Part shown: piece by piece, positions 796 through 53,950 of the stretch
How the letters are laid out: every line of letters starts with the position of its first letter
Position numbering within the stretch: position 1 is the stretch's first letter
Source of the DNA: an uncultured Spirochaetota bacterium
Lineage (GTDB): Bacteria; Spirochaetota; Spirochaetia; SZUA-6; CAVTHK01
Assembly: GCA_963734495.1 (NCBI GenBank)
Contig: CAVTHK010000011.1
Coordinates: forward strand, 704,001 to 768,000
Direction of reading: 5' to 3'
Length of the DNA stretch: 64,000 nt
Translations under genes and position numbers: made by a program
The notes under the pieces: model-generated
Told to the model about the DNA's origin: nothing
Database searches by the model: none
What the model saw: only the letters and a program-made list of their open reading frames with translations

Positions 796-1227
796 ATGAC
801 CATCGACGCGCTTCGGCTCGAGGACTACGAGGACGCGTACGCGCTGTGGAAAGGCTCCCAGGGCATCGGCCTGAGCAGCGCCGACTCGCGCGAGGCGATC
901 GCGCGCTACCTGGCGCGCAACCCCGGCATGAGCTCGGCGGCCCGCGACGGCGGCCGGCTCGTGGGCGCGGTGCTCGCGGGCCACGACGGGCGGCGCGGGT
1001 TTCTGCACCACCTCGCCGTGGCCGCCGACCGGCGCGGCGCGGGCACCGGCCGCGCGCTCGTCGAGCGCTCGCTCCGGCTGCTCAAGGCCGAAGGCATAGC
1101 CAAGTGCCACATCTTCCTGATGAAGGACAACGACGACGGCCGCGGTTTCTGGCAGGCCGTCGGATGGAAGCCTCGCGCTGACATCGGGGTCTGCTCCCGC
1201 GACCTGGAAGACGCGGCCGGGGCGTGA
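796..1227 (+). CDS. GNAT family N-acetyltransferase
   Basis: GHDGRRGFLHHLAV, RGAGTGRAL acetyl-CoA motif, FWQAVGW. Confidence 0.9.
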   Translation: MTIDALRLEDYEDAYALWKGSQGIGLSSADSREAIARYLARNPGMSSAARDGGRLVGAVLAGHDGRRGFLHHLAVAADRRGAGTGRALVERSLRLLKAEGIAKCHIFLMKDNDDGRGFWQAVGWKPRADIGVCSRDLEDAAGA

Positions 1228-1246
1228 GGAGGCCGCTCGTCCGCGG

Positions 1247-1906
1247 TCAGCGCCGCCTGAGGCTGGCCGCCAGCCCGGCCGGGTGACGGAAGAGCTTTCC
1301 GGAGCCCCGCTTTGCCTTCTCATCGAGCGCGCGGTGGACGAAAGCCGCGTAGTCCTCGGTGTTCGACGAGGTGGACTCGAATCCGTTGACGCACACGTTT
1401 TCGGCCGCCGCGCCGGTCGTGCGCAGAAGCGCCTCGACGAGGCCGCGGAAGCTCGCTCTCGCGATCTCCCCCAGGACGCCTCCGCCGTGAGGACTGTTCT
1501 GGCCCACGAGCGCCGCGAGTCCGGCGCGCCGGCGGGCGAAGTAGGCGAGCAGCTCCCGGGAGAGGAACAGGCTCCCCTTGACCCACGAGTCGATCTCTTC
1601 CTCGATGTCGGCTGACTCGGCCTGCAATAGGGGGGCGCTGCCCAGGTCGGGAGGACCGAGCTGGACGAGGACGTCGATCGCGTCGAAGGCGGTGATGGCC
1701 TTGAGCACCACGTTGCGGACGCTCACGGGCGAGCGTCGGTTCCACTGGAACACTTTGAGCGAGTCGCCCGCCACCTTGTCGAAGGAGGAGAGCGCGTCCT
1801 GGTTGGTCGTCGTGGCGAACACGCGATCGCCCGACTCCAGGAACAGGCTTACGAGCTGGTTGCCGAGAGACGTATCTATATCCGTGACAAAGACGACGCG
1901 GCTCAT
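1247..1906 (-). CDS. SDR/Rossmann-fold-like protein with degenerate motifs
   Basis: C-terminal part of ORF 1247..2917 from MSRVVFVTDIDTSLG; SDR-like architecture but no GxxxGxG or YxxxK. Confidence 0.65.
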   Translation of the reverse strand: MSRVVFVTDIDTSLGNQLVSLFLESGDRVFATTTNQDALSSFDKVAGDSLKVFQWNRRSPVSVRNVVLKAITAFDAIDVLVQLGPPDLGSAPLLQAESADIEEEIDSWVKGSLFLSRELLAYFARRRAGLAALVGQNSPHGGGVLGEIARASFRGLVEALLRTTGAAAENVCVNGFESTSSNTEDYAAFVHRALDEKAKRGSGKLFRHPAGLAASLRRR

Positions 1907-2117
1907 AAGCACTTGCCCCCTGTACTCGGGGGCTCGCCCGAGTTTAGGAGAACGCGTTTGCTTGGTCAATTGCGCGAACGCGAGCGAAAGGGGCTCGAGG
2001 GCAGGCACGAAGGCCGGGGCAAGCGCGGCGAAGCAGCCGCGGGGAGCGCGCGGGCGGCGGAAACGCCCCGGGGGAACGGGTTGCCGGCAGGCCCGGCGGG
2101 CCGCCGGCCGGGGGCCT

Positions 2118-2561
2118 TCAATCCAGATCGACGATCTTGTCCGGCGAGGTCTCGTTGACGAAGATCTCGGCGTACCGGCCGGACGACTTCGCCTTCTGCT
2201 CGCCGGGGAAATAGGTCTCGACGAAGAAGAACAGCAGGTCCGACATGTCGTTGAACGACCGCACCGGCGCGAAGCGGTACCAGGTCTCGTAGTCGCCGAG
2301 CAGGGCGCGGTGCTTCCCGTTGCGCACGAGCTCCGGGTCTGTCGTCTCGCGGATCGAGTTGCGCAGCCCGCCGTACCAGGCGCGCGCCACGTTGAAGAGG
2401 CGCAGCGCCTTGCCCTCGTCGCGGTAGTAGAGCTCGTAGATGCCCGCGACCGAAGGCACCACCTTGATGATCTCGTGGCGATCGGTCTTGCGTAGCTCGG
2501 ACCAGTTGATCGTGTAGTAGGCGTTTTCGCCGTCGACCTGCTTGCTGACGCCGGGCTCCAT
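2118..2561 (-). CDS. Hypothetical protein, possible GIY-YIG-like fold
   Basis: Protein-like composition; AGIYELYY motif. Confidence 0.7.
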   Translation of the reverse strand: MEPGVSKQVDGENAYYTINWSELRKTDRHEIIKVVPSVAGIYELYYRDEGKALRLFNVARAWYGGLRNSIRETTDPELVRNGKHRALLGDYETWYRFAPVRSFNDMSDLLFFFVETYFPGEQKAKSSGRYAEIFVNETSPDKIVDLD

Positions 2562-41187: not shown

Positions 41188-41970
41188 CTACAGCAGACCG
41201 CGGCGGGCGAGCAGCAGCGTCAGGCCCGCGACGCATGCCGTCTCCGTGCGAAGGACGCGCTCGCCGAGGCCCGCCAGCGCGATGCCCGCAGCCCGCATCA
41301 GAAGCCGCTCCCTCGCGGACCACCCGCGCTCCGGACCGACGAGCAGGACCGTGCGGCCGGCCGCCGGAGTCCAGTCGCGAAGGCGGATCCGCGCCTCGTA
41401 GTTGTCGAGGGCCAGCGCCTCGGCGTCGCCGGCCCGCAGCGCTTCCACGGCGAGCGCTTCCACGGCGGCGTCGAGGCTCTCGTAGATGCGCACGCGCGGG
41501 ATCCTCGTGGCGAACGCCTGGGTGGCGCCGGCGATCAGGTGCTCGCGGTAGCCGCCTGACCCGCCGCCCGGCAAGCCGCCTGACGCGCTGCCCGGCCCGC
41601 CGCCTGACGTCCAGAGGCCGGCCTTGAGGTAGGACGCTTCCGCCTTGTCCGTCCCGCAGGTCAGGATCTCCTCCGCTCCGAGGCTCGTCGCCTCGCGGAG
41701 GATGCGCTGCGCCGCCACCGGCCTGCACGCGCCGAACAGAAGCGCCACTGGGGCAAGCGGCGCCGCGGGCTCGGTAAGGCGGAGCTCGAAGCGGAGCCCC
41801 TCTTCGGTGAGCGCGACGATCGTGGCCTTGCCGCGGCGGCCGTCGATCACGCCGGCGTCGAAGCTGTCGCCCGGCTTCCTGCGGAGCACGCCGATGATGT
41901 GAGTCGCCCGCGGGTCATCGCGGGGCAGCGGCCTGTCCTGCTCGCCCTCCTCGAAGAGCACGAGGTTCAC
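41188..41970 (-). CDS. rsmE: 16S rRNA m3U1498 methyltransferase
   Basis: HIIGVLR, VGPERGWS, LGERVLRTETA. Confidence 0.9.
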   Translation of the reverse strand: MNLVLFEEGEQDRPLPRDDPRATHIIGVLRRKPGDSFDAGVIDGRRGKATIVALTEEGLRFELRLTEPAAPLAPVALLFGACRPVAAQRILREATSLGAEEILTCGTDKAEASYLKAGLWTSGGGPGSASGGLPGGGSGGYREHLIAGATQAFATRIPRVRIYESLDAAVEALAVEALRAGDAEALALDNYEARIRLRDWTPAAGRTVLLVGPERGWSARERLLMRAAGIALAGLGERVLRTETACVAGLTLLLARRGLL

Positions 41971-43082: not shown

Positions 43083-44534
43083 ATGAAACCCGGAGCCCAC
43101 AGGGCCTTTGCGCGCGACGCAGCGATCGTGGCGCGCGCGCTCGCGGCCTACTACGCCGAGTCGGCCTCCGGCCGGATGCCGGTCATCCGGCAGGCGCCGA
43201 TGGAGGAGATCATCTCCGAGCTCGAGCTGCGGCGCCTGGTCGAGCGCGGCGGGCTCGGCGGACGTGAGCTGCGGCGGTTCGTGAGACGCTACCTCTCGCA
43301 CACCACGCGGCTGCATCACCCGGCCTACATGGCCCACCAGGTCGCGGTCCCGCACCTGTCCGGGGCGCTCGCCTCGATGATCGACGGCTTCACCAATAAC
43401 GCGATGGCGATCTACGAGATGGGGCCCGCGGCGGCGAGCATCGAAGCCTTCGTGCTGGACTGGCTGATCCGCAAGGTGGGGTGGGAGCCCGCGCCGCTGC
43501 AGCGGGCCGCGGGCGACGCGGGCCCGGGCGCCGCCGGCGTGCTGACCCACGGCGGCTCGCTCGCGAACCTCACCGCCCTGGTCGCGGCGCGGACGCGGCT
43601 TGCGCCCCGCGTCTGGGAAGAAGGCAGCCCCCACGACCTCGCGCTGCTCGCGCCCGAAGGCAGCCACTACTCGATCGCCCGCGCGGCGGGCATCCTCGGC
43701 CTCGGCTCGCGCGCCATCTACGCGCTGGAGACCGACGAGCGCGGGGTCATCCGCGTCGACCGCCTCCCCGCGGCCCACGCGAGGATGACGTCGGACGGCC
43801 GGCGGGCGATCGCCCTCGTCGCCAACGCCTGCAGCACCGCGGTCGGCCTCTACGACCCGCTGCTGGAGACCGGCGAGTTCTGCAGGTCCGCCGGCATCTG
43901 GATGCACGTCGACGGCGCCCACGGCGCAAGCGCGCTGCTCAGCCCGAAGCAGCGCCGCCGGCTCGAGGGCATCGGGCTCGCCGATTCGATCGTCTGGGAC
44001 GCCCACAAGCTCCTGCGCACGCCCACGCTCTGCGCCGCGGTCCTCGTCCACGACGGCCGCGCCCTGGATGCCGCCTTCCACCAGGAGGCGAGCTACCTCT
44101 TCCACGAGAAGGAGCAGCCGGGCTTCGACTTCATCCACAGGACCGTCGAATGCACCAAGGCCGGCCTGGGCCTCAAGCTGTTCTTCGTGCTCGCCGCCAT
44201 GGGAGAGAAGGGGGTGGCCGAGTACCTCGACGGCGTCGTGGACCTCACGCACGACGCGTGGCGCCTGATCTCGGCGCAGCCGGACTTCGAATGCCCCGTC
44301 GAGCCCGAGAGCAACATCCTGTGCTTCCGCTACACGGGGTCGGGCGACGACGACGCCCTCCCGATCGCCCTCAGGGACGCGCTGATCGCCTCGGGCGAGG
44401 ACTACCTCTCCACGACCGTCTTCCGCGGCCGCCGCTACCTGCGGATGGCGCTCATGAACCCTGCCACCGCGATCGCCGACATCGAGGCGCTGCTCGCGCG
44501 CATCCGCAGGGCCGCGGCCGCGAGCCGCTCATGA
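43083..44534 (+). CDS. PLP-dependent group II amino acid decarboxylase (DAB decarboxylase-like)
   Basis: GGSLANL, HYSI, HVDGAHG, DAHK. Confidence 0.9.
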   Translation: MKPGAHRAFARDAAIVARALAAYYAESASGRMPVIRQAPMEEIISELELRRLVERGGLGGRELRRFVRRYLSHTTRLHHPAYMAHQVAVPHLSGALASMIDGFTNNAMAIYEMGPAAASIEAFVLDWLIRKVGWEPAPLQRAAGDAGPGAAGVLTHGGSLANLTALVAARTRLAPRVWEEGSPHDLALLAPEGSHYSIARAAGILGLGSRAIYALETDERGVIRVDRLPAAHARMTSDGRRAIALVANACSTAVGLYDPLLETGEFCRSAGIWMHVDGAHGASALLSPKQRRRLEGIGLADSIVWDAHKLLRTPTLCAAVLVHDGRALDAAFHQEASYLFHEKEQPGFDFIHRTVECTKAGLGLKLFFVLAAMGEKGVAEYLDGVVDLTHDAWRLISAQPDFECPVEPESNILCFRYTGSGDDDALPIALRDALIASGEDYLSTTVFRGRRYLRMALMNPATAIADIEALLARIRRAAAASRS

Positions 44535-45361
44535 GCGGCGGCGAGACGGTCGAGAGCTTCGTGGCGAGGACGCTTTCGTCGCGGAAGTACCGGGGCATCG
44601 CGCCGGAGACCGTCCGCGACGTCGTCGCCCGCGAAGTCGGCCGCGGCGGCGCAGCGGCCGACGCAGCCGCGCGGGCAAAGCTGCGCCTGCACCGGCTGTG
44701 GGCCGGTTACCTCGGCGAGCCGGACCACGAGGAGGCGGCGCGCAGCCTCGTGGGCGCGTTCACGGCGGGGGCGGGGGGCGACGCCGCGGTTCGCGCGGCC
44801 TGCCTTGCCATCATGGCGAGGCACCAGTCCTCCCGCGAGCGGCTGGGCGAGCTGGAGGCCTTTTACCGTTCCGTGTTCGGCGTCACGGGCCGCCCGCGCG
44901 CGCTGCTCGATCTCGCGTGCGCGGTCAACCCTCTCGCGTGGCGCTGGATGGGGCTGGAGCGCGGCGCGAAGTACCTCGCCTACGACATCAACGGCCGCAC
45001 GGTCGATCTGGTGACGCGCTACTTCGCCTTCGAGGGAGTGGCCGGCCGCGCCGAGCATCGCGACGTGCTGGTGCGCCCGCCCGACGAGCCCGGCGACGTC
45101 GCCCTGCTGCTCAAGATGTACCACTGCCTCGAGCACCGCCGCCGCGGCGCCGGCTGGGAGGCGGTGGCGGCCGTGCCGGCGGCGTGGGTCGTGATCTCCT
45201 TTCCCACGCGGAACCTGGCCTCGCGGCGCGCCGACATCATCGGCAACTACGAGCCGGAGATCCGGGCCGCGGCGGCCGCGCGCGGCTGGCAGGTCGCGCA
45301 GGCGGGAGTCGCGAGCGAAACCGCCCTCATCGTGCGAAAGGAGCCGCCGTGCTCTACGTGA
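44531..45361 (+). CDS. ArmA/Rmt/FmrO-family 16S rRNA methyltransferase paralog 1
   Basis: SRKY, LHRLW, HQSSRER, DLACAVNP, YDI, LLLK, SFPT. Confidence 0.85.
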   Translation: MSGGETVESFVARTLSSRKYRGIAPETVRDVVAREVGRGGAAADAAARAKLRLHRLWAGYLGEPDHEEAARSLVGAFTAGAGGDAAVRAACLAIMARHQSSRERLGELEAFYRSVFGVTGRPRALLDLACAVNPLAWRWMGLERGAKYLAYDINGRTVDLVTRYFAFEGVAGRAEHRDVLVRPPDEPGDVALLLKMYHCLEHRRRGAGWEAVAAVPAAWVVISFPTRNLASRRADIIGNYEPEIRAAAAARGWQVAQAGVASETALIVRKEPPCST

Positions 45362-46098
45362 TCGGCACGCCCATCGGCAACCTCGAGGACACGAGCTACC
45401 GCGCCGTGCGCGTGCTCGCCGAGTCGGACGCCCTCGCCTGCGAGGACACGCGACAGACGCGCAAGCTCCTGCAGCGATACGACGTGCCGGTGCCCCGCCT
45501 TCTCCTTTCGTACCACGAGCACAACGAGGCCGAAGCGGGCGAGCGGATCCTCGGGCTTCTCGCCGAGGGGCTCAAGGTCGCGCTCTGCTCGGACGCGGGC
45601 ATGCCGGGCATCAGCGACCCCGGCTACCGGCTGATCGCCGCCTGCCGTGAGCGGGGCCTCGAGGTCGAGGTGATCCCCGGGCCCGACGCCGTCTCGACCG
45701 CCCTCGTGAGCTCGGGGCTGCCGACGTCGAGCTTCACCTTCAAGGGCTTTCCTCCTCGCAAGAGCGGCCAGCGCCGCCGCTTCCTCGACGCGGAGCGGGA
45801 GTCGCCCCACACGCTCGTGCTCTTCGAGTCGCCGCACCGGCTGGGCGCGCTGCTCGACGACGCGCTCGCCGTGCTCGGCAACCGCCTGGCCGCGGTCTGC
45901 GTCGAGCTGACCAAGATGTTCGAGCAGGTCGACCGCGACCACCTCGCCGCGCTCGCGGACCGCTACCGCGACACTCGGGTCAAGGGCGAGATCACGGTCG
46001 TGATCGCGGGGAACAACCCCAAGTTCCTCGGAGTGGAAATTGAAGGCGACCAGGCGGCCGACGACCGCGACGACGCCGAAGACGACCAGCGCGCCTGA
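45349..46098 (+). CDS. rsmI: 16S rRNA Cm1402 2'-O-methyltransferase
   Basis: TPIGNLED, CEDTR, SDAGMPGISDPG, FESPHR, ELTKMFE. Confidence 0.95.
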   Translation: MLYVIGTPIGNLEDTSYRAVRVLAESDALACEDTRQTRKLLQRYDVPVPRLLLSYHEHNEAEAGERILGLLAEGLKVALCSDAGMPGISDPGYRLIAACRERGLEVEVIPGPDAVSTALVSSGLPTSSFTFKGFPPRKSGQRRRFLDAERESPHTLVLFESPHRLGALLDDALAVLGNRLAAVCVELTKMFEQVDRDHLAALADRYRDTRVKGEITVVIAGNNPKFLGVEIEGDQAADDRDDAEDDQRA

Positions 46099-46101
46099 GG
46101 C

Positions 46102-46926
46102 TCAGGACCTGCGGGGGATCGCAAGTCGCTCGCGCGCCTCGGCCGGGGAGGCGACGTCGAGCCCCATTTGCCGGACCAGCGACACCGCCCGCTCGACCAG
46201 CGCCGCGTTGCTCGCCGCGACGGCGCCGGGCGCGTGGAACCCGCTGTCCTCGTAGCCCACGCGGATCGCGTCGGCGCCCAGCGCCGCCGCCGCGGCGAGC
46301 AGGGTGAGGTCCTCCATGCCGTGATGGATGATGCCCCAGCGCGCCCCGGCGGGCAGGAGGCTCGCGAGGAAGAACAGGTGCGAGGCCGAGGCGCTCAGGG
46401 CGCCGCGGAACCCGAAGCACAGACCGAAGAACTGGGGAAGAGGCAGCAGCCCCTCGTCCCGGATGATTTTCACGTTGTCGATCATCCCCGCCTCGAAGAT
46501 CTCGAGCTCGGGCGCGACGGATCGCTCCTTCATGCGGCCCGCCCAGTAGCGGATCTCGGGGAGCGTGTTGATGTAGACGCCGTCGTCGAAGTTTGCGGAT
46601 CCCATGTTCAGCGATGCGCATTCGACCCGCGGCTCGGCGAGGCCCGCGCACCGCTCCTCGAGGCTGAGGGTCGTGACTCCGCCGGTCGAGACCTGCAGCA
46701 CGATGTCGCTGCCGGCGCGGATCAGGTCCAGCGTCCTCGCGAAAGGCGCGAGGTCCGCGGTCTGCCGGCCGCCGCCGTCTCGGACGTGCAGGTGCACGAG
46801 CGACGCTCCCGCGTTCGCGGCGTCGACCACGGCGCGGGCGACTTCCTCCGGGCTCACGGGATTGCGAGCGCCGGGCGGCAGATTCCCGCCCACAGGGGCG
46901 ACCGCCACGATCACCTTCTTCGGCAT
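46102..46926 (-). CDS. Beta-keto acid cleavage enzyme (Kce/DUF849 family)
   Basis: HLHVRD, STGG, SLNMGS, RVGYED. Confidence 0.88.
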   Translation of the reverse strand: MPKKVIVAVAPVGGNLPPGARNPVSPEEVARAVVDAANAGASLVHLHVRDGGGRQTADLAPFARTLDLIRAGSDIVLQVSTGGVTTLSLEERCAGLAEPRVECASLNMGSANFDDGVYINTLPEIRYWAGRMKERSVAPELEIFEAGMIDNVKIIRDEGLLPLPQFFGLCFGFRGALSASASHLFFLASLLPAGARWGIIHHGMEDLTLLAAAAALGADAIRVGYEDSGFHAPGAVAASNAALVERAVSLVRQMGLDVASPAEARERLAIPRRS

Positions 46927-47175
46927 AGGGCCTCCGCGCCTGCGCGCAATGTAGGGAGATGCGGCCGAACCAGTCAACGACGACGTCCGCTCGGCGCGGG
47001 GGGGAGTGCCGCGCTATTCAAAAGAGCCGGAAATTCGAATTCACGCGGACGGAATTTCCCGTCTATCTGAATGGCAGGGCATTGTCTCATGGGCCCGAGC
47101 GGGGCGCGGGGGGCGCCAGGCGGCCGCGCGTGGCGCTTGACCAACGCGCCGATATCCCCCTCTCATCAACACTCG

Positions 47176-48249
47176 ATGGCTGCCTCGCTTCGCAGGCTCG
47201 AGACCCGCCACGGCGCGCTCGCGCTCCCGGCGTTCCTGCCGGACGCTACGCGCGCTGTGGTGCGCGCGCTGGATTCCGCCGACCTGGAAGCAGTGGGCGT
47301 CGAGGCCGTCATGGTGAACACTCTCCACGTGGCCTCGCATCCGGGCCTTTCCGTGATCAGGGCGGCGGGCGGGCTGCACGCGTTCATGGGGTGGAAGGGC
47401 CCGGTCGCCACCGATTCGGGCGGCTTCCAGGTCTTCTCTCTCCTGGCGGGCGGGCTGGCCGAGGTGTCCCCCCGTGGGTTCAGCTACCGGACCGCGCGGG
47501 GCGCCGAGAAGGAGAGGCTCTCCCCCGAGAGCTGCATCCGCATGCAGCTGCGCGCGCAGTCGGACCTGCTCTTCTGCCTCGACCACTGCACCGGGCCGGG
47601 CGCGTCCGCCGAGGAATTGCGGCAGTCGGTGGACAACACCGTGCGCTGGGCGCGCGCCTGCCGGGACGCGTTCGACGCCGCGACCGAGGCGTGGGAGCGC
47701 AAGCCGCTGCTGTTCGCCGTGATCCAGGGCGGGAGCGACGCGGCCCTGAGGCGGGAGTGCGCCGATCGCCTCATCGAGATCGGGTTCGACGGCTTCGGAT
47801 TCGGCGGGTGGCCGATCGAGGGGACGGGCCTGAGCGAGATGGTGGCCGCCACCGCGGAGATGGTGCCGCGTGGCGTCCCCTTGCACGGCCTCGGCATCGG
47901 GAAGCCCGAGAACCTCGTCCGCGCCCGCCGCGCGGGCTACTCCCTGTTCGACTGCGTCATCCCGACGCGGGACGCGCGGCACGGCCGGCTCTTCGCGTTC
48001 GCGGGCCCGCCGGCGCGGCTCGACCTCGACGCGGCGGACTTCTACAGGCCGCTCTCCCTGGAATCGCCGCGGCTTCGCAGGGACGGATCGCCCATCGAGG
48101 AGGGATGCGACTGCCCATGCTGCCGCAGGTACAGCCGCGCCTACCTTCATCATCTATACTCGATCCGCGACGCTTCGGCCGCTCGGCTGGCCACGCTGCA
48201 CAACCTGCGCTTCTACGCGAGGCTCATCGAGGCGCTGCGCCGTGAGTGA
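47176..48249 (+). CDS. tgt: Divergent tRNA-guanine transglycosylase family protein
   Basis: TDSGGFQ, LDHC, IQGG, FDCVIPTR, CDCPCC...HN zinc site; atypical FLPDAT, GGWP, HGLG. Confidence 0.85.
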   Translation: MAASLRRLETRHGALALPAFLPDATRAVVRALDSADLEAVGVEAVMVNTLHVASHPGLSVIRAAGGLHAFMGWKGPVATDSGGFQVFSLLAGGLAEVSPRGFSYRTARGAEKERLSPESCIRMQLRAQSDLLFCLDHCTGPGASAEELRQSVDNTVRWARACRDAFDAATEAWERKPLLFAVIQGGSDAALRRECADRLIEIGFDGFGFGGWPIEGTGLSEMVAATAEMVPRGVPLHGLGIGKPENLVRARRAGYSLFDCVIPTRDARHGRLFAFAGPPARLDLDAADFYRPLSLESPRLRRDGSPIEEGCDCPCCRRYSRAYLHHLYSIRDASAARLATLHNLRFYARLIEALRRE

Positions 48250-49051
48250 CGCGGCGCCAGGCGGGGAGGCGCGGCTCGTCGAGGATCTGCGCGGTTCGCG
48301 GAAGTACCGCTACGTCTGCGACGCGGCGCTCTCGCGCGTGGCGCGCTGGGCGCTCCGGCGGGCCGCGACGGCCGCGGCCGCATCACAGCTCGCGCGGCGC
48401 AAGCTGCACCAGGTGTACGGCGCCTATGTCCGGCCCGAGGAGCACAGGGCCGTCGAGAAGGAGCTCGCGACGCTGCCCGCCGTGCCGTCCGCGGACGAGG
48501 CGCGAGCCGTCTGCCGGCGCGTGCTCGGCCTGCACGCCTCCACGCGCGAGCGGCTGCCGATCCTGGACCGCTGCTTCGTCGACGTGTTCGCGGCGACGGG
48601 CCCGCCGCGGTCCGTGCTCGACGCCGCCTGCGGGCTCGGGGCGTTCGCGCTTCCCTGGATGGGGCTCGCGCGCGACGCCGCCTACATCCCGCTGGACATC
48701 GACACGCGGCTCGCGGACTTCGGCAACCGCCTGCTCCTCCTGCTCGGCAGGGAACCGGCCGCGCGCTGCCTCGACCTGCTCGGCGACGAGCCGCTTCCAG
48801 AGGCGGACGTGACGCTTCTGCTCAAGACGGTCCCCTGCCTCGATCGCCAGGATGGCGGAGCCGCCGCCGCGGTTCTCGGCCGCATCCGTTCGCGCGCCGT
48901 GGTGATCTCGTTCCCCCTCAAGTCGCTCGGGGGCCGCGAGCGCGGAATGCGGGCGCAGTACGACCGCCGCATCCGCGAGCTGCTGCGCGGCGGCGACCTG
49001 CAAGAGCTCGCGTACCCGGGCGAAGTCTTCTACGTGTGGAGCAGGGGTTGA
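48242..49051 (+). CDS. ArmA/Rmt/FmrO-family 16S rRNA methyltransferase paralog 2
   Basis: SRKY, KLHQVYGAY, HASTRER, DAACG, DID, LLLKT, SFPLKSLGGR. Confidence 0.88.
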   Translation: MSDAAPGGEARLVEDLRGSRKYRYVCDAALSRVARWALRRAATAAAASQLARRKLHQVYGAYVRPEEHRAVEKELATLPAVPSADEARAVCRRVLGLHASTRERLPILDRCFVDVFAATGPPRSVLDAACGLGAFALPWMGLARDAAYIPLDIDTRLADFGNRLLLLLGREPAARCLDLLGDEPLPEADVTLLLKTVPCLDRQDGGAAAAVLGRIRSRAVVISFPLKSLGGRERGMRAQYDRRIRELLRGGDLQELAYPGEVFYVWSRG

Positions 49052-49070
49052 CCGCGCCGGGGGATGTCGA

Positions 49071-49742
49071 CTATCGCCGGAAGACGCGGATCTCCCAGCC
49101 GCGGGCGCGCGCCTCTTTCCTGAGCCGGCCGTCGGGGTTGGTCGCGACCGGGTGGCCCACCGCCTCCAGCAGCGGGAGATCGTGGATGCTGTCGGAGTAG
49201 AACGAGCACTGCTGCGGCTTGAACCCCGCCCTGCGTATGTGCTCGAGGACTTTGATCCTCTTCTTGTCGCGGAAGACCGGCCCGTCCAGGAAACGCCCGG
49301 TGCTGAGGCCGTTCACGAACTCGAGCGAGCTCGCGATCAGCCCGGTCCCGAGCCATTCGGCCAGCGGCTGGACGATGATGTCGATCGACGAGGTGGCGAG
49401 GATGACGGAGCGGCCCGCGGCCTTGAGCCCCGAGATCAGCTCGCGTGCCTCCTGGTAGACGTCGTCGCGCAGCTTCTTCTCGAAGCAGATCCGCGCCACC
49501 TCCTCGAGGTAGCTGCGCTCGGTGCCGGCGAGACCGGGGAAGTCCTTCTGGAACGTCTTCTGCGAGCTCATCTCGGTAAAGCGGTAGCGCAGGTAGAACA
49601 CGGGGATCTTGAGCAGGTTCTTGCGGGGGAACAGCCCCAGCCGGACGCCGAGAACGATGTAATGACGCGGCGACGAGCCGCGCAGAAGGGTGTGGTCGAC
49701 GTCGAAGAAATCTATCCCCTGACGGAGCATGTTTCTCCCCAA
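49071..49742 (-). CDS. HAD-IB family hydrolase
   Basis: FFDVDHTL, YSDSIHDLPLL, NPD. Confidence 0.9.
   Translation of the reverse strand: MGRNMLRQGIDFFDVDHTLLRGSSPRHYIVLGVRLGLFPRKNLLKIPVFYLRYRFTEMSSQKTFQKDFPGLAGTERSYLEEVARICFEKKLRDDVYQEARELISGLKAAGRSVILATSSIDIIVQPLAEWLGTGLIASSLEFVNGLSTGRFLDGPVFRDKKRIKVLEHIRRAGFKPQQCSFYSDSIHDLPLLEAVGHPVATNPDGRLRKEARARGWEIRVFRR

Positions 49743-51662: not shown

Positions 51663-53950
<2,288 letters not shown>

Follow-up and report, generated by a model that had tools for sequence, protein, structure and literature searches.

A tRNA-guanine transglycosylase paralogue overlapping an FmrO/Rmt-family methyltransferase gene: a candidate module for modification of the 16S rRNA decoding centre

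The DNA analysed here is a 64,000-nucleotide stretch (hereafter the window) of contig CAVTHK010000011.1 from an uncultured Spirochaetota bacterium, whose assembly consists of 18 contigs totalling 5.4 Mb and is 83% complete; the window has a G+C content of about 70%, and coordinates are window positions unless a contig or locus is named. On its plus strand lies a gene of the tRNA-guanine transglycosylase (TGT) family at 47176..48249, encoding 357 aa and matching PF01702 with 311.6 bits over 47176-48246, which we call GGWP-TGT after a motif described below. It is followed on the same strand by FmrO2 at 48242..49051, encoding an FmrO/Rmt-family methyltransferase of 269 aa (PF07091, 155.7 bits over 48242-49048) that is predicted to be of the type producing 7-methylguanosine at position 1405 of 16S rRNA (m7G1405). 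A first-pass annotation, made from the sequence, had reported that the two genes overlap, and this was confirmed: the TGT frame closes with CGT GAG TGA, the stop occupying 48247-48249, and the next frame opens with GTG at 48242-48244, giving a plus-strand start/stop overlap of 8 nt (48242..48249, GTGAGTGA). The true TGT start is likely the ATG at 47176, because 21 homologues align from it, though the longest open reading frame begins at 47071.

The pair does not stand alone. Upstream and on the same strand are FmrO1 (44531..45361; PF07091, 224.9 bits), a further FmrO/Rmt-family methyltransferase gene of a 'second paralogue' type, and rsmI (45349..46098; TIGR00096, 214 bits, cut-off 167.9), the gene for the 16S rRNA C1402 2'-O-methyltransferase and the sole copy found in this genome. 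The GTG start of rsmI at 45349 overlaps the FmrO1 stop by 13 nt, and the FmrO1 ATG itself overlaps the stop of an upstream pyridoxal phosphate-dependent decarboxylase gene (ATGA). Between rsmI and the TGT gene, a BKACE-family gene (46102..46977; PF05853, 248.5 bits) is encoded on the minus strand. In a genome of the same genus (G201) the neighbourhood is syntenic, including an RsmE-family gene, but lacks the BKACE gene; there rsmI abuts the TGT gene, and FmrO1, rsmI, TGT and FmrO2 are contiguous. Since it is absent from this otherwise syntenic region, the BKACE gene is, judged from gene order, no module member and a recent insertion splitting an older four-gene module, FmrO-rsmI-TGT-FmrO. All four genes of this putative module look constrained in the comparison with G201 (dN/dS by Nei-Gojobori: TGT 0.20, FmrO2 0.40, RsmI 0.18, FmrO1 0.34). 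The window's RsmE-family gene, of the 16S U1498 type (41188..41970, minus strand; PF04452, 83.8 bits; TIGR00046, 86.5 bits, cut-off 41), lies 5 kb upstream and is given for context only. When 44300-49300 was scanned for promoters and terminators, nothing promoter-like was detected upstream of the TGT gene; the single site is on the minus strand at 46977-46948. An aminoglycoside biosynthetic cluster, guessed from the presence of tgt and FmrO in high-GC DNA, was ruled out, as the neighbours are housekeeping genes.

The window TGT scored 301.6 bits against TIGR00430, the equivalog model for bacterial Tgt, which is below the cut-off of 306.75, and 297.2 bits against the superfamily model TIGR00449, whose cut-off is 47.6. 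A structure model from a 22-row alignment (predicted local distance difference test score, pLDDT, 92.4; predicted template modelling score, pTM, 0.90) superposed on the Zymomonas mobilis TGT with a TM-score of 0.88 and a root-mean-square deviation of 2.0 Å at 35-36% identity, and model and alignment together displayed the TIM-barrel TGT fold with a zinc subdomain of three Cys and one His. The first-pass annotation had stated that catalytic, guanine-binding and zinc motifs are kept, and they proved invariant in all 22 sequences, which come from several phyla: the catalytic Asp pair D80 (DSGG) and D259 (FDC), the guanine contacts D136 (LDHC, with C138 also invariant), Q184 (QGG) and G210-G211, and the zinc ligands C311, C313, C316 and H342. 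Alignment to the solved Tgt likewise placed equivalents of Z. mobilis Asp280, Asp102, Asp156, Gln203 and Gly230 in the window protein. In fold, catalytic pair, guanine-binding Asp, Gln and Gly, zinc site and approximate length, the protein thus resembles bacterial Tgt of Z. mobilis, Escherichia coli and Thermotoga maritima (PDB 1Q2R, 2ASH), and like them it has no extra domains. TGT catalysis proceeds by way of a covalent intermediate between enzyme and RNA, which has been captured by chemical trapping (1Q2R). The residue following the nucleophile Asp varies by lineage, being mostly FDC, with FDS in Chloroflexota copies and FDG in fused proteins described below, which also carry LGIASP in place of LGIGKP.

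The departures from canonical Tgt, judged by alignment to the solved Tgt and to 18 canonical Tgt from carrier genomes, are concentrated in the base pocket. Two of them are invariant in the 22 sequences, namely PDAT for PVGT (FLPDAT versus FMPVGT) and GGWP for GGL[AS]VGE (within GFGGWP); GGWP is followed by [IVL]-x-x, and the position equivalent to Glu235 is variable. A third, HGLG for YLMG, is found in the window protein, and H[AG]LG occurs in most members, but a subclade of Bacillota and plasmid proteins has YAMG instead (KYAMGLG). Of the three replacements noted in the first pass, then, PDAT and GGWP hold throughout the family and HxLG does not. About 14 extra residues precede the zinc subdomain. 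In the Z. mobilis enzyme, the Leu231/Ala232 peptide is described as flipping to present either its NH to the guanine imidazole or its C=O to the preQ1 amine, with Glu235 as the switch (PMC3660597, PMC7687107, from which the other residue roles are taken as well). This peptide switch and Glu235 are lost in the window TGT, and the alignments thereby agree with the first-pass view that the protein is atypical exactly at the residues reading position 7 of the base. Trp-Pro (Trp212-Pro213) in place of Leu231-Ala232 would remove the backbone NH that canonical Tgt points at guanine N7. As Pro lacks an NH and the residue at the Glu position is variable, GGWP-TGT presumably cannot read a free N7 as Tgt does and may be adapted to a base with a blocked position 7 or with a carbon there. 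Such a pocket fits a base without a free N7, such as 7-methylguanine or a 7-deazaguanine, and does not tell which. We propose that GGWP-TGT is a catalytically competent base-exchange enzyme.

The first-pass annotation had likened the protein to archaeal TGT and DpdA, which it described as having GG..P and H-x-x-G motifs, but by profile score these other branches of the superfamily are far more distant than bacterial Tgt. Against the archaeal enzyme ArcTGT (1IQ8), the window protein scored 80.9 bits with TIGR00432 (cut-off 350) and 63.5 bits to the solved chain, and its 357 aa with a single Pfam domain, PF01702, leave it without the C-terminal PUA-type extension. TGT-family enzymes acting on DNA do exist (DpdA, PDB 7UI4), and the first-pass annotation had listed DNA among the possible targets. 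A TGT that modifies DNA like DpdA, with a methyltransferase acting on DNA or on the inserted base, found no support and is hardly credible: the DpdA model NF041059 gave 20.2 bits against a cut-off of 200 and the 7ui4 chain 33.7 bits, and neither the surroundings of the pair in the window nor the recurrent neighbour clusters of 80 homologous loci contain dpd, restriction or phage genes.

These loci were obtained by a pattern scan with one genome per species, which detected relatives in at least 583 species-level genomes; 80 loci were kept. They span Chloroflexota, Bacillota, Latescibacterota, Hydrogenedentota, Armatimonadota, Planctomycetota, Bacteroidota/Ignavibacteriota, Acidobacteriota, Gemmatimonadota, Nitrospirota, Actinomycetota, a WWE3 genome and others. 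One unpublished genome (G042, locus L048) is included in the counts from the pattern scan, the 80 loci, the carrier genomes, QueC, rsmI and the FmrO tree. In a quick maximum-likelihood tree, 24 GGWP proteins formed one clade with a stem length of 1.77 and a support of 95 in the Shimodaira-Hasegawa-like approximate likelihood-ratio test (SH-aLRT), apart from 18 canonical Tgt of the same genomes.

Carriers generally have both. A higher-scoring TGT locus was also present in 49 of the first 50 carrier genomes (42 full length; seven partial, split or frameshifted), and G046 was the genome of these 50 in which no second TGT locus was found. A second, canonical tgt had been named as a thing to look for in the window's own genome, and it was found on contig C10 at 95229-96326 (locus L002, about 1066-2148, minus strand), with FMPVGT and YVMGIG. 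It is split over three frames, as two frameshifts roughly 290 nt from each other would cause, and is intact in G201. An assembly error is suspected, because the window also contains a seemingly truncated proton-pyrophosphatase gene; a pseudogene is the alternative. That open reading frame (52730-53950, minus strand) matches only profile positions 1-244 of 645 and looks broken. With a canonical tgt elsewhere in this genome and in 49 of 50 carriers, preQ1 insertion at tRNA position 34 is already covered. A third, very divergent TGT-family paralogue was seen in two Acidobacteriota-type carriers of the pair (G004:C826:5273-6232, L110; G007:C7:50553-51512, L109), with about 320 aa, FLPVYQ and IHVYGAGDP, and 165-167 bits. 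Another protein, P0131 (637 aa), joins PF18931 to a TGT domain with 49% identity to the window TGT over 76% of its length, a fusion architecture different from the one described next.

The coupling of the TGT to the METHYLTRANSFERASE was pervasive: tblastn detected an FmrO homologue in 78 of the 80 loci, and by gene models FmrO is adjacent on the same strand in 72, or 73 if a partial contig-edge match in L062 is included. Of 60 FmrO genes that follow the TGT gene, 43 begin ahead of its stop codon and a further 11 at most 30 nt beyond it. Locus L024 encodes a single TGT-FmrO fusion protein of 663 aa, and a search among longer database proteins yielded six fusions of PF01702 and PF07091 with 628-663 aa. 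These are 58-62% alike and have common subgroup motifs, so they may stem from a single event. An AlphaFold model of the natural fusion (6-row alignment) was poor, with pLDDT 56.8 and pTM 0.45, and says nothing on domain packing; a complex prediction for TGT and FmrO2 scored 0.00 in two runs and counts neither way. The fusions do suggest a tight physical coupling, and on this ground the TGT-like protein might be a non-catalytic RNA-binding partner that assists the methyltransferase in finding or holding its substrate, as QTRT2 is for QTRT1 in eukaryotes, whose Tgt is described as retaining catalytic residues in only one subunit (PMC3660597). Such a role is very unlikely, since the nucleophile Asp, the second catalytic Asp and the guanine contacts are unchanged in all 22 sequences across phyla, and the accessory QTRT2 reaches no more than 77-80 bits with the family profile.

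Co-occurrence was further examined both ways in 100 genomes of Chloroflexota, the phylum of G044, a genome chosen for having the pair and not itself counted. FmrO was present in 18 of the 100, and 17 of these 18 were tested, one unpublished genome (G268) entering the tally of 18 only. All 17 had a TGT of a low-scoring type (293-323 bits), encoded no more than 1.4 kb from FmrO in 15 genomes and on a separate contig in two; all five TGTs that were fetched, both non-adjacent ones included, carry FLPDAT and GFGGWP. Among 80 FmrO-negative genomes searched (of 82), none had a TGT of this type, and three odd TGTs there lack GGWP. As related genomes are not independent, 17/17 versus 0/80 is to be read as a pattern and not as a statistic. 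The survey of tgt(GGWP)-rmt pairs proposed in the first pass returned a strongly conserved pairing, beyond what chance would give. The three features by which the module is recognized, namely PDAT and GGWP in the TGT, an FmrO-family neighbour encoded on the same strand and a canonical Tgt at another site of the genome, are all present here, and the last two distinguish GGWP-TGT from bacterial Tgt. We regard the pair as a genuine module that is under selection and widely conserved, and that probably does not serve queuosine insertion at tRNA position 34. Of the outcomes that the first-pass annotation had named as fatal to its interpretation, an unconserved pairing and a sole tgt were not what was found.

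FmrO2 matched PF07091 at profile positions 2-231 of 255, its 155.7 bits comparing with a cut-off of 27, and scored 199.7 bits against the Rmt equivalog NF000466, below the cut-off of 250, as did FmrO1 with 179.8 bits. A profile of 30 FmrO2 orthologues matched Sgm with 276.7 bits over positions 3-267 and RmtC with 205.6 bits; RmtB and ArmA were also matched at full length. Comparison with the Arm/Rmt enzymes (Sgm 3LCU, RmtC 8GHU/6PQB, RmtB 3FRH, ArmA 3FZG) shows the match to include the N-terminal part, and blocks such as HxSTxER, the DxACGLNP-type S-adenosylmethionine (SAM) motif and SFP..SLGGR.KGM are common to these enzymes and to FmrO2 and its orthologues. FmrO2 is accordingly predicted to be an Rmt-type SAM methyltransferase of the m7G1405 type. 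The window differs from Arm/Rmt systems in having two paralogues and a housekeeping context (rsmI, TGT) rather than an antibiotic cluster or transposon. FmrO1 belongs with other 'second' paralogues to a separate clade of 16 proteins (SH-aLRT 97), whose members are the immediate TGT partner only once.

The same gene pair was encountered on clinical plasmids. When 72,556 plasmid records were searched by tblastn, 70 had a match. Of the 40 that were listed, twelve form a distinct group with 41-46% identity, the others, at 36.6% or less, being ordinary tgt genes. Four of the twelve were opened. Two carry tgt-rmtG with an 8-nt gene overlap, as in the window, the order in plasmid pKP13f being rsmH-tgt-rmtG, and the others carry tgt-rmtD2 and tgt-metallophosphoesterase-rmtB2. 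The last is a Providencia plasmid, on which the metallophosphoesterase gene (L088 6155-6964) separates the GGWP-type tgt from rmtB2. The plasmid TGTs are of the same type as the window's (43-48% identity), stand upstream of an FmrO-family gene, carry PAFFPDAT and GFGGWP, and fall inside the GGWP clade beside a Bacillota member. In a quick tree, RmtG, RmtD2 and RmtB2 nest among TGT-adjacent FmrO proteins, again beside Bacillota members (SH-aLRT 96). The m7G1405 activity of these three enzymes is established in the literature; since they nest there, the TGT-coupled methyltransferases include established m7G1405 enzymes. All four opened cassettes adjoin IS91-family and IS26 elements, and the clinical cassettes differ from the window in being mobilized by IS91/ISCR-type and IS26 elements among other resistance genes, whereas the window pair is chromosomal, syntenic with the same-genus genome and free of mobile genes beside it.

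The adjacency itself has been recorded before: in one report the gene just ahead of rmtG is noted as a 'putative tRNA ribosyltransferase CDS' (PMC3904158), and another places rmtG in an operon with rsmH, tgt and rsmL (PMC9311965). Our literature search, which did not extend to subscription papers and supplements, returned such passing mentions only, with no distinct enzyme or joint function proposed, and nothing linking 7-deazaguanine with 16S rRNA G1405. These results fit the earlier description of the module as undescribed: within the literature searched, what is new is GGWP-TGT as a distinct enzyme and its proposed joint role with the methyltransferase, and what was already known is the adjacency.

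Several genes around the pair belong to families that modify one region of 16S rRNA. In 56 of the 80 loci rsmI is present (blastp clustering had given 41), and it usually precedes the TGT gene immediately. For 32 of 51 genomes no other rsmI copy was found, which makes it the housekeeping gene in these. An rsmI match was absent in genomes G010, G016, G019, G020, G022 and G026. RsmE-like genes occur in six of the 80 loci. RsmI and RsmH are described as modifying C1402, RsmF C1407 and RsmE U1498, all next to G1405, and ArmA is reported to block RsmI (PMC12406665). The first-pass annotation, which had missed the upstream FmrO1 and rsmI, left the choice among tRNA, rRNA and DNA open; these upstream genes and the clinical rmt contexts point instead to helix 44 of 16S rRNA. 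As a whole, its interpretation is partly supported.

Our preferred explanation, to which we assign a probability of roughly 0.5, is that the coupled module acts on helix 44 of 16S rRNA, where the methylase would write m7G1405 and the TGT would exchange guanine. The enzymes of the module FmrO(A)-rsmI-TGT(GGWP)-FmrO(B), which comprises between two and four genes, would act together on the decoding centre of the small subunit; FmrO2 would write m7G1405, and GGWP-TGT would take a guanine out of that RNA, in the simplest case G1405 or m7G1405, and insert another guanine-like base. Target guanine, reaction order and the base that enters are, like the rRNA substrate of the TGT, matters of inference. 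A bolder version, in which N7 methylation turns G1405 into a good leaving group and the TGT, as the first rRNA-guanine transglycosylase, swaps the 7-methylguanine for preQ1, preQ0 or another analogue, is doubtful.

A number of points weigh against the helix 44 proposal. Base exchange has been described in tRNA and lately also in DNA, and we know of no report of it in rRNA. By sequence and fold, the closest relatives of GGWP-TGT are tRNA enzymes, and the segment after the nucleophile is much alike in the two (FDCVIPTRDARH versus FDCVMPTRNARNG in the alignment to the solved Tgt), so an anticodon-loop-like substrate is possible. Rmt enzymes confer resistance when cloned alone, and the Sgm-type genes of antibiotic producers are not known to come with a TGT, which together argue that the methyltransferase is independent of the TGT. 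Conversely, two of the 80 carriers (G006, G011) have GGWP-TGT and no FmrO anywhere in the assembly, the TGT neighbour being a NUDIX gene or cysS; the TGT may work alone there, although both are metagenome-assembled genomes (MAGs). The rsmI linkage could simply reflect a shared operon for modification of the translation apparatus. An Rfam scan of the window and five loci found no family and no preQ1 riboswitch.

Much of this would suit the main rival, in which GGWP-TGT is a second tRNA enzyme, serving another position, tRNA set or salvaged base, and merely shares an operon or regulation with the rRNA methyltransferases. Profile and fold nearest to bacterial tRNA Tgt, the conserved RNA-side motif after the nucleophile and the two carriers without FmrO all speak for it, as do the TGT gene adjoining cysS in L012 and thrS lying just downstream of the pair in L022 and L026. 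We nevertheless consider it unlikely, if the most serious of the competitors: the co-occurrence in Chloroflexota, the 43 overlaps among 60 gene pairs and the six fusions (which may count as one event) are tighter than usual co-regulation, and the partners are specifically helix-44 enzymes (rsmI, rsmH, rsmE).

A further point against the proposal is that the link to 7-deazaguanine supply, if recurrent, is weak. The TGT lies inside a preQ1 operon in one of the 80 loci, that of a Solirubrobacteraceae MAG (L020 3403-10231), where MFS-QueE-QueD-QueC-rsmI-TGT-FmrO-QueF run on one strand and the pair sits within a complete preQ1 synthesis set. A QueE-like neighbour occurs in five of the 80 (L016, L022, L025, L026, L028; Latescibacterota and Gemmatimonadota), as a radical-SAM gene directly upstream of the TGT (for example, L026 7106-7921 and L022 7074-7946); these divergent genes score 99-102 bits, short of all QueE cut-offs, and several of the genomes concerned gave no rsmI match. 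Of 51 genomes, the window's own being part of the tally, 32 had QueC and 19 did not, the latter all being MAG-grade assemblies; an obligatory link to de novo 7-deazaguanine synthesis was rejected as a rule on this count. Its absence is compatible with a deazaguanine substrate, because canonical Tgt persists in QueC-negative genomes. For the families searched, the first-pass statement that the window lacks que genes holds; QueC gave no match in the window's own genome, QueA, QueF and a YhhQ-type transporter are encoded on other contigs, and a 6-pyruvoyltetrahydropterin synthase (PTPS)/QueD-like gene lies 12 kb past the window end. The YhhQ-type (Vut_1) transporter gene, G000:C17:30200-31192, is directly upstream of queF, suggesting preQ0 salvage. 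With QueA, QueF next to this transporter, and the PTPS gene, 7-deazaguanine bases are probably available to the organism by salvage.

The missing QueC is also in line with a reading in which no dedicated base-synthesis genes are needed, namely that methyltransferase and TGT are writer and eraser, the TGT removing 7-methylguanine from m7G1405 or from mis-methylated sites and restoring guanine, so that methylation would be reversible or proof-read. Trp-Pro in place of the peptide that donates a hydrogen bond to N7 would fit such a blocked N7. A writer and an eraser that are fused or encoded by overlapping genes would, however, run a futile cycle, and the occasional embedding in a preQ1 operon would be unexplained, which makes this reading improbable.

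In the window's own lineage the module is patchy. Of 151 genomes sampled from its phylum, FmrO was present in one, the window's own, and among relatives in three of 31, one of which (G211) coincides in contig and coordinates with the record of an uncultured Spirochaetales bacterium; the idea that the pair is typical of this phylum was rejected on these counts. The pattern fits loss in most lines or lateral acquisition.

For the family, the database name 'tRNA guanosine(34) transglycosylase Tgt' is probably wrong for the proteins of at least 583 species-level genomes. Because rmtG, rmtD2 and rmtB2 travel with GGWP-TGT and both proteins group with Bacillota versions, the findings point to chromosomal housekeeping modules of environmental bacteria as the source of clinical Rmt genes. 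If the bolder version, an rRNA-guanine transglycosylase exchanging 7-methylguanine, is true, the clinical cassettes with an intact TGT beside rmtG, rmtD2 or rmtB2 would carry a second ribosome-modifying activity, and position 1405 would carry a so far overlooked base-exchanged nucleotide. A TGT clade nearly always paired with a G1405 methyltransferase would make base exchange in rRNA directly testable.

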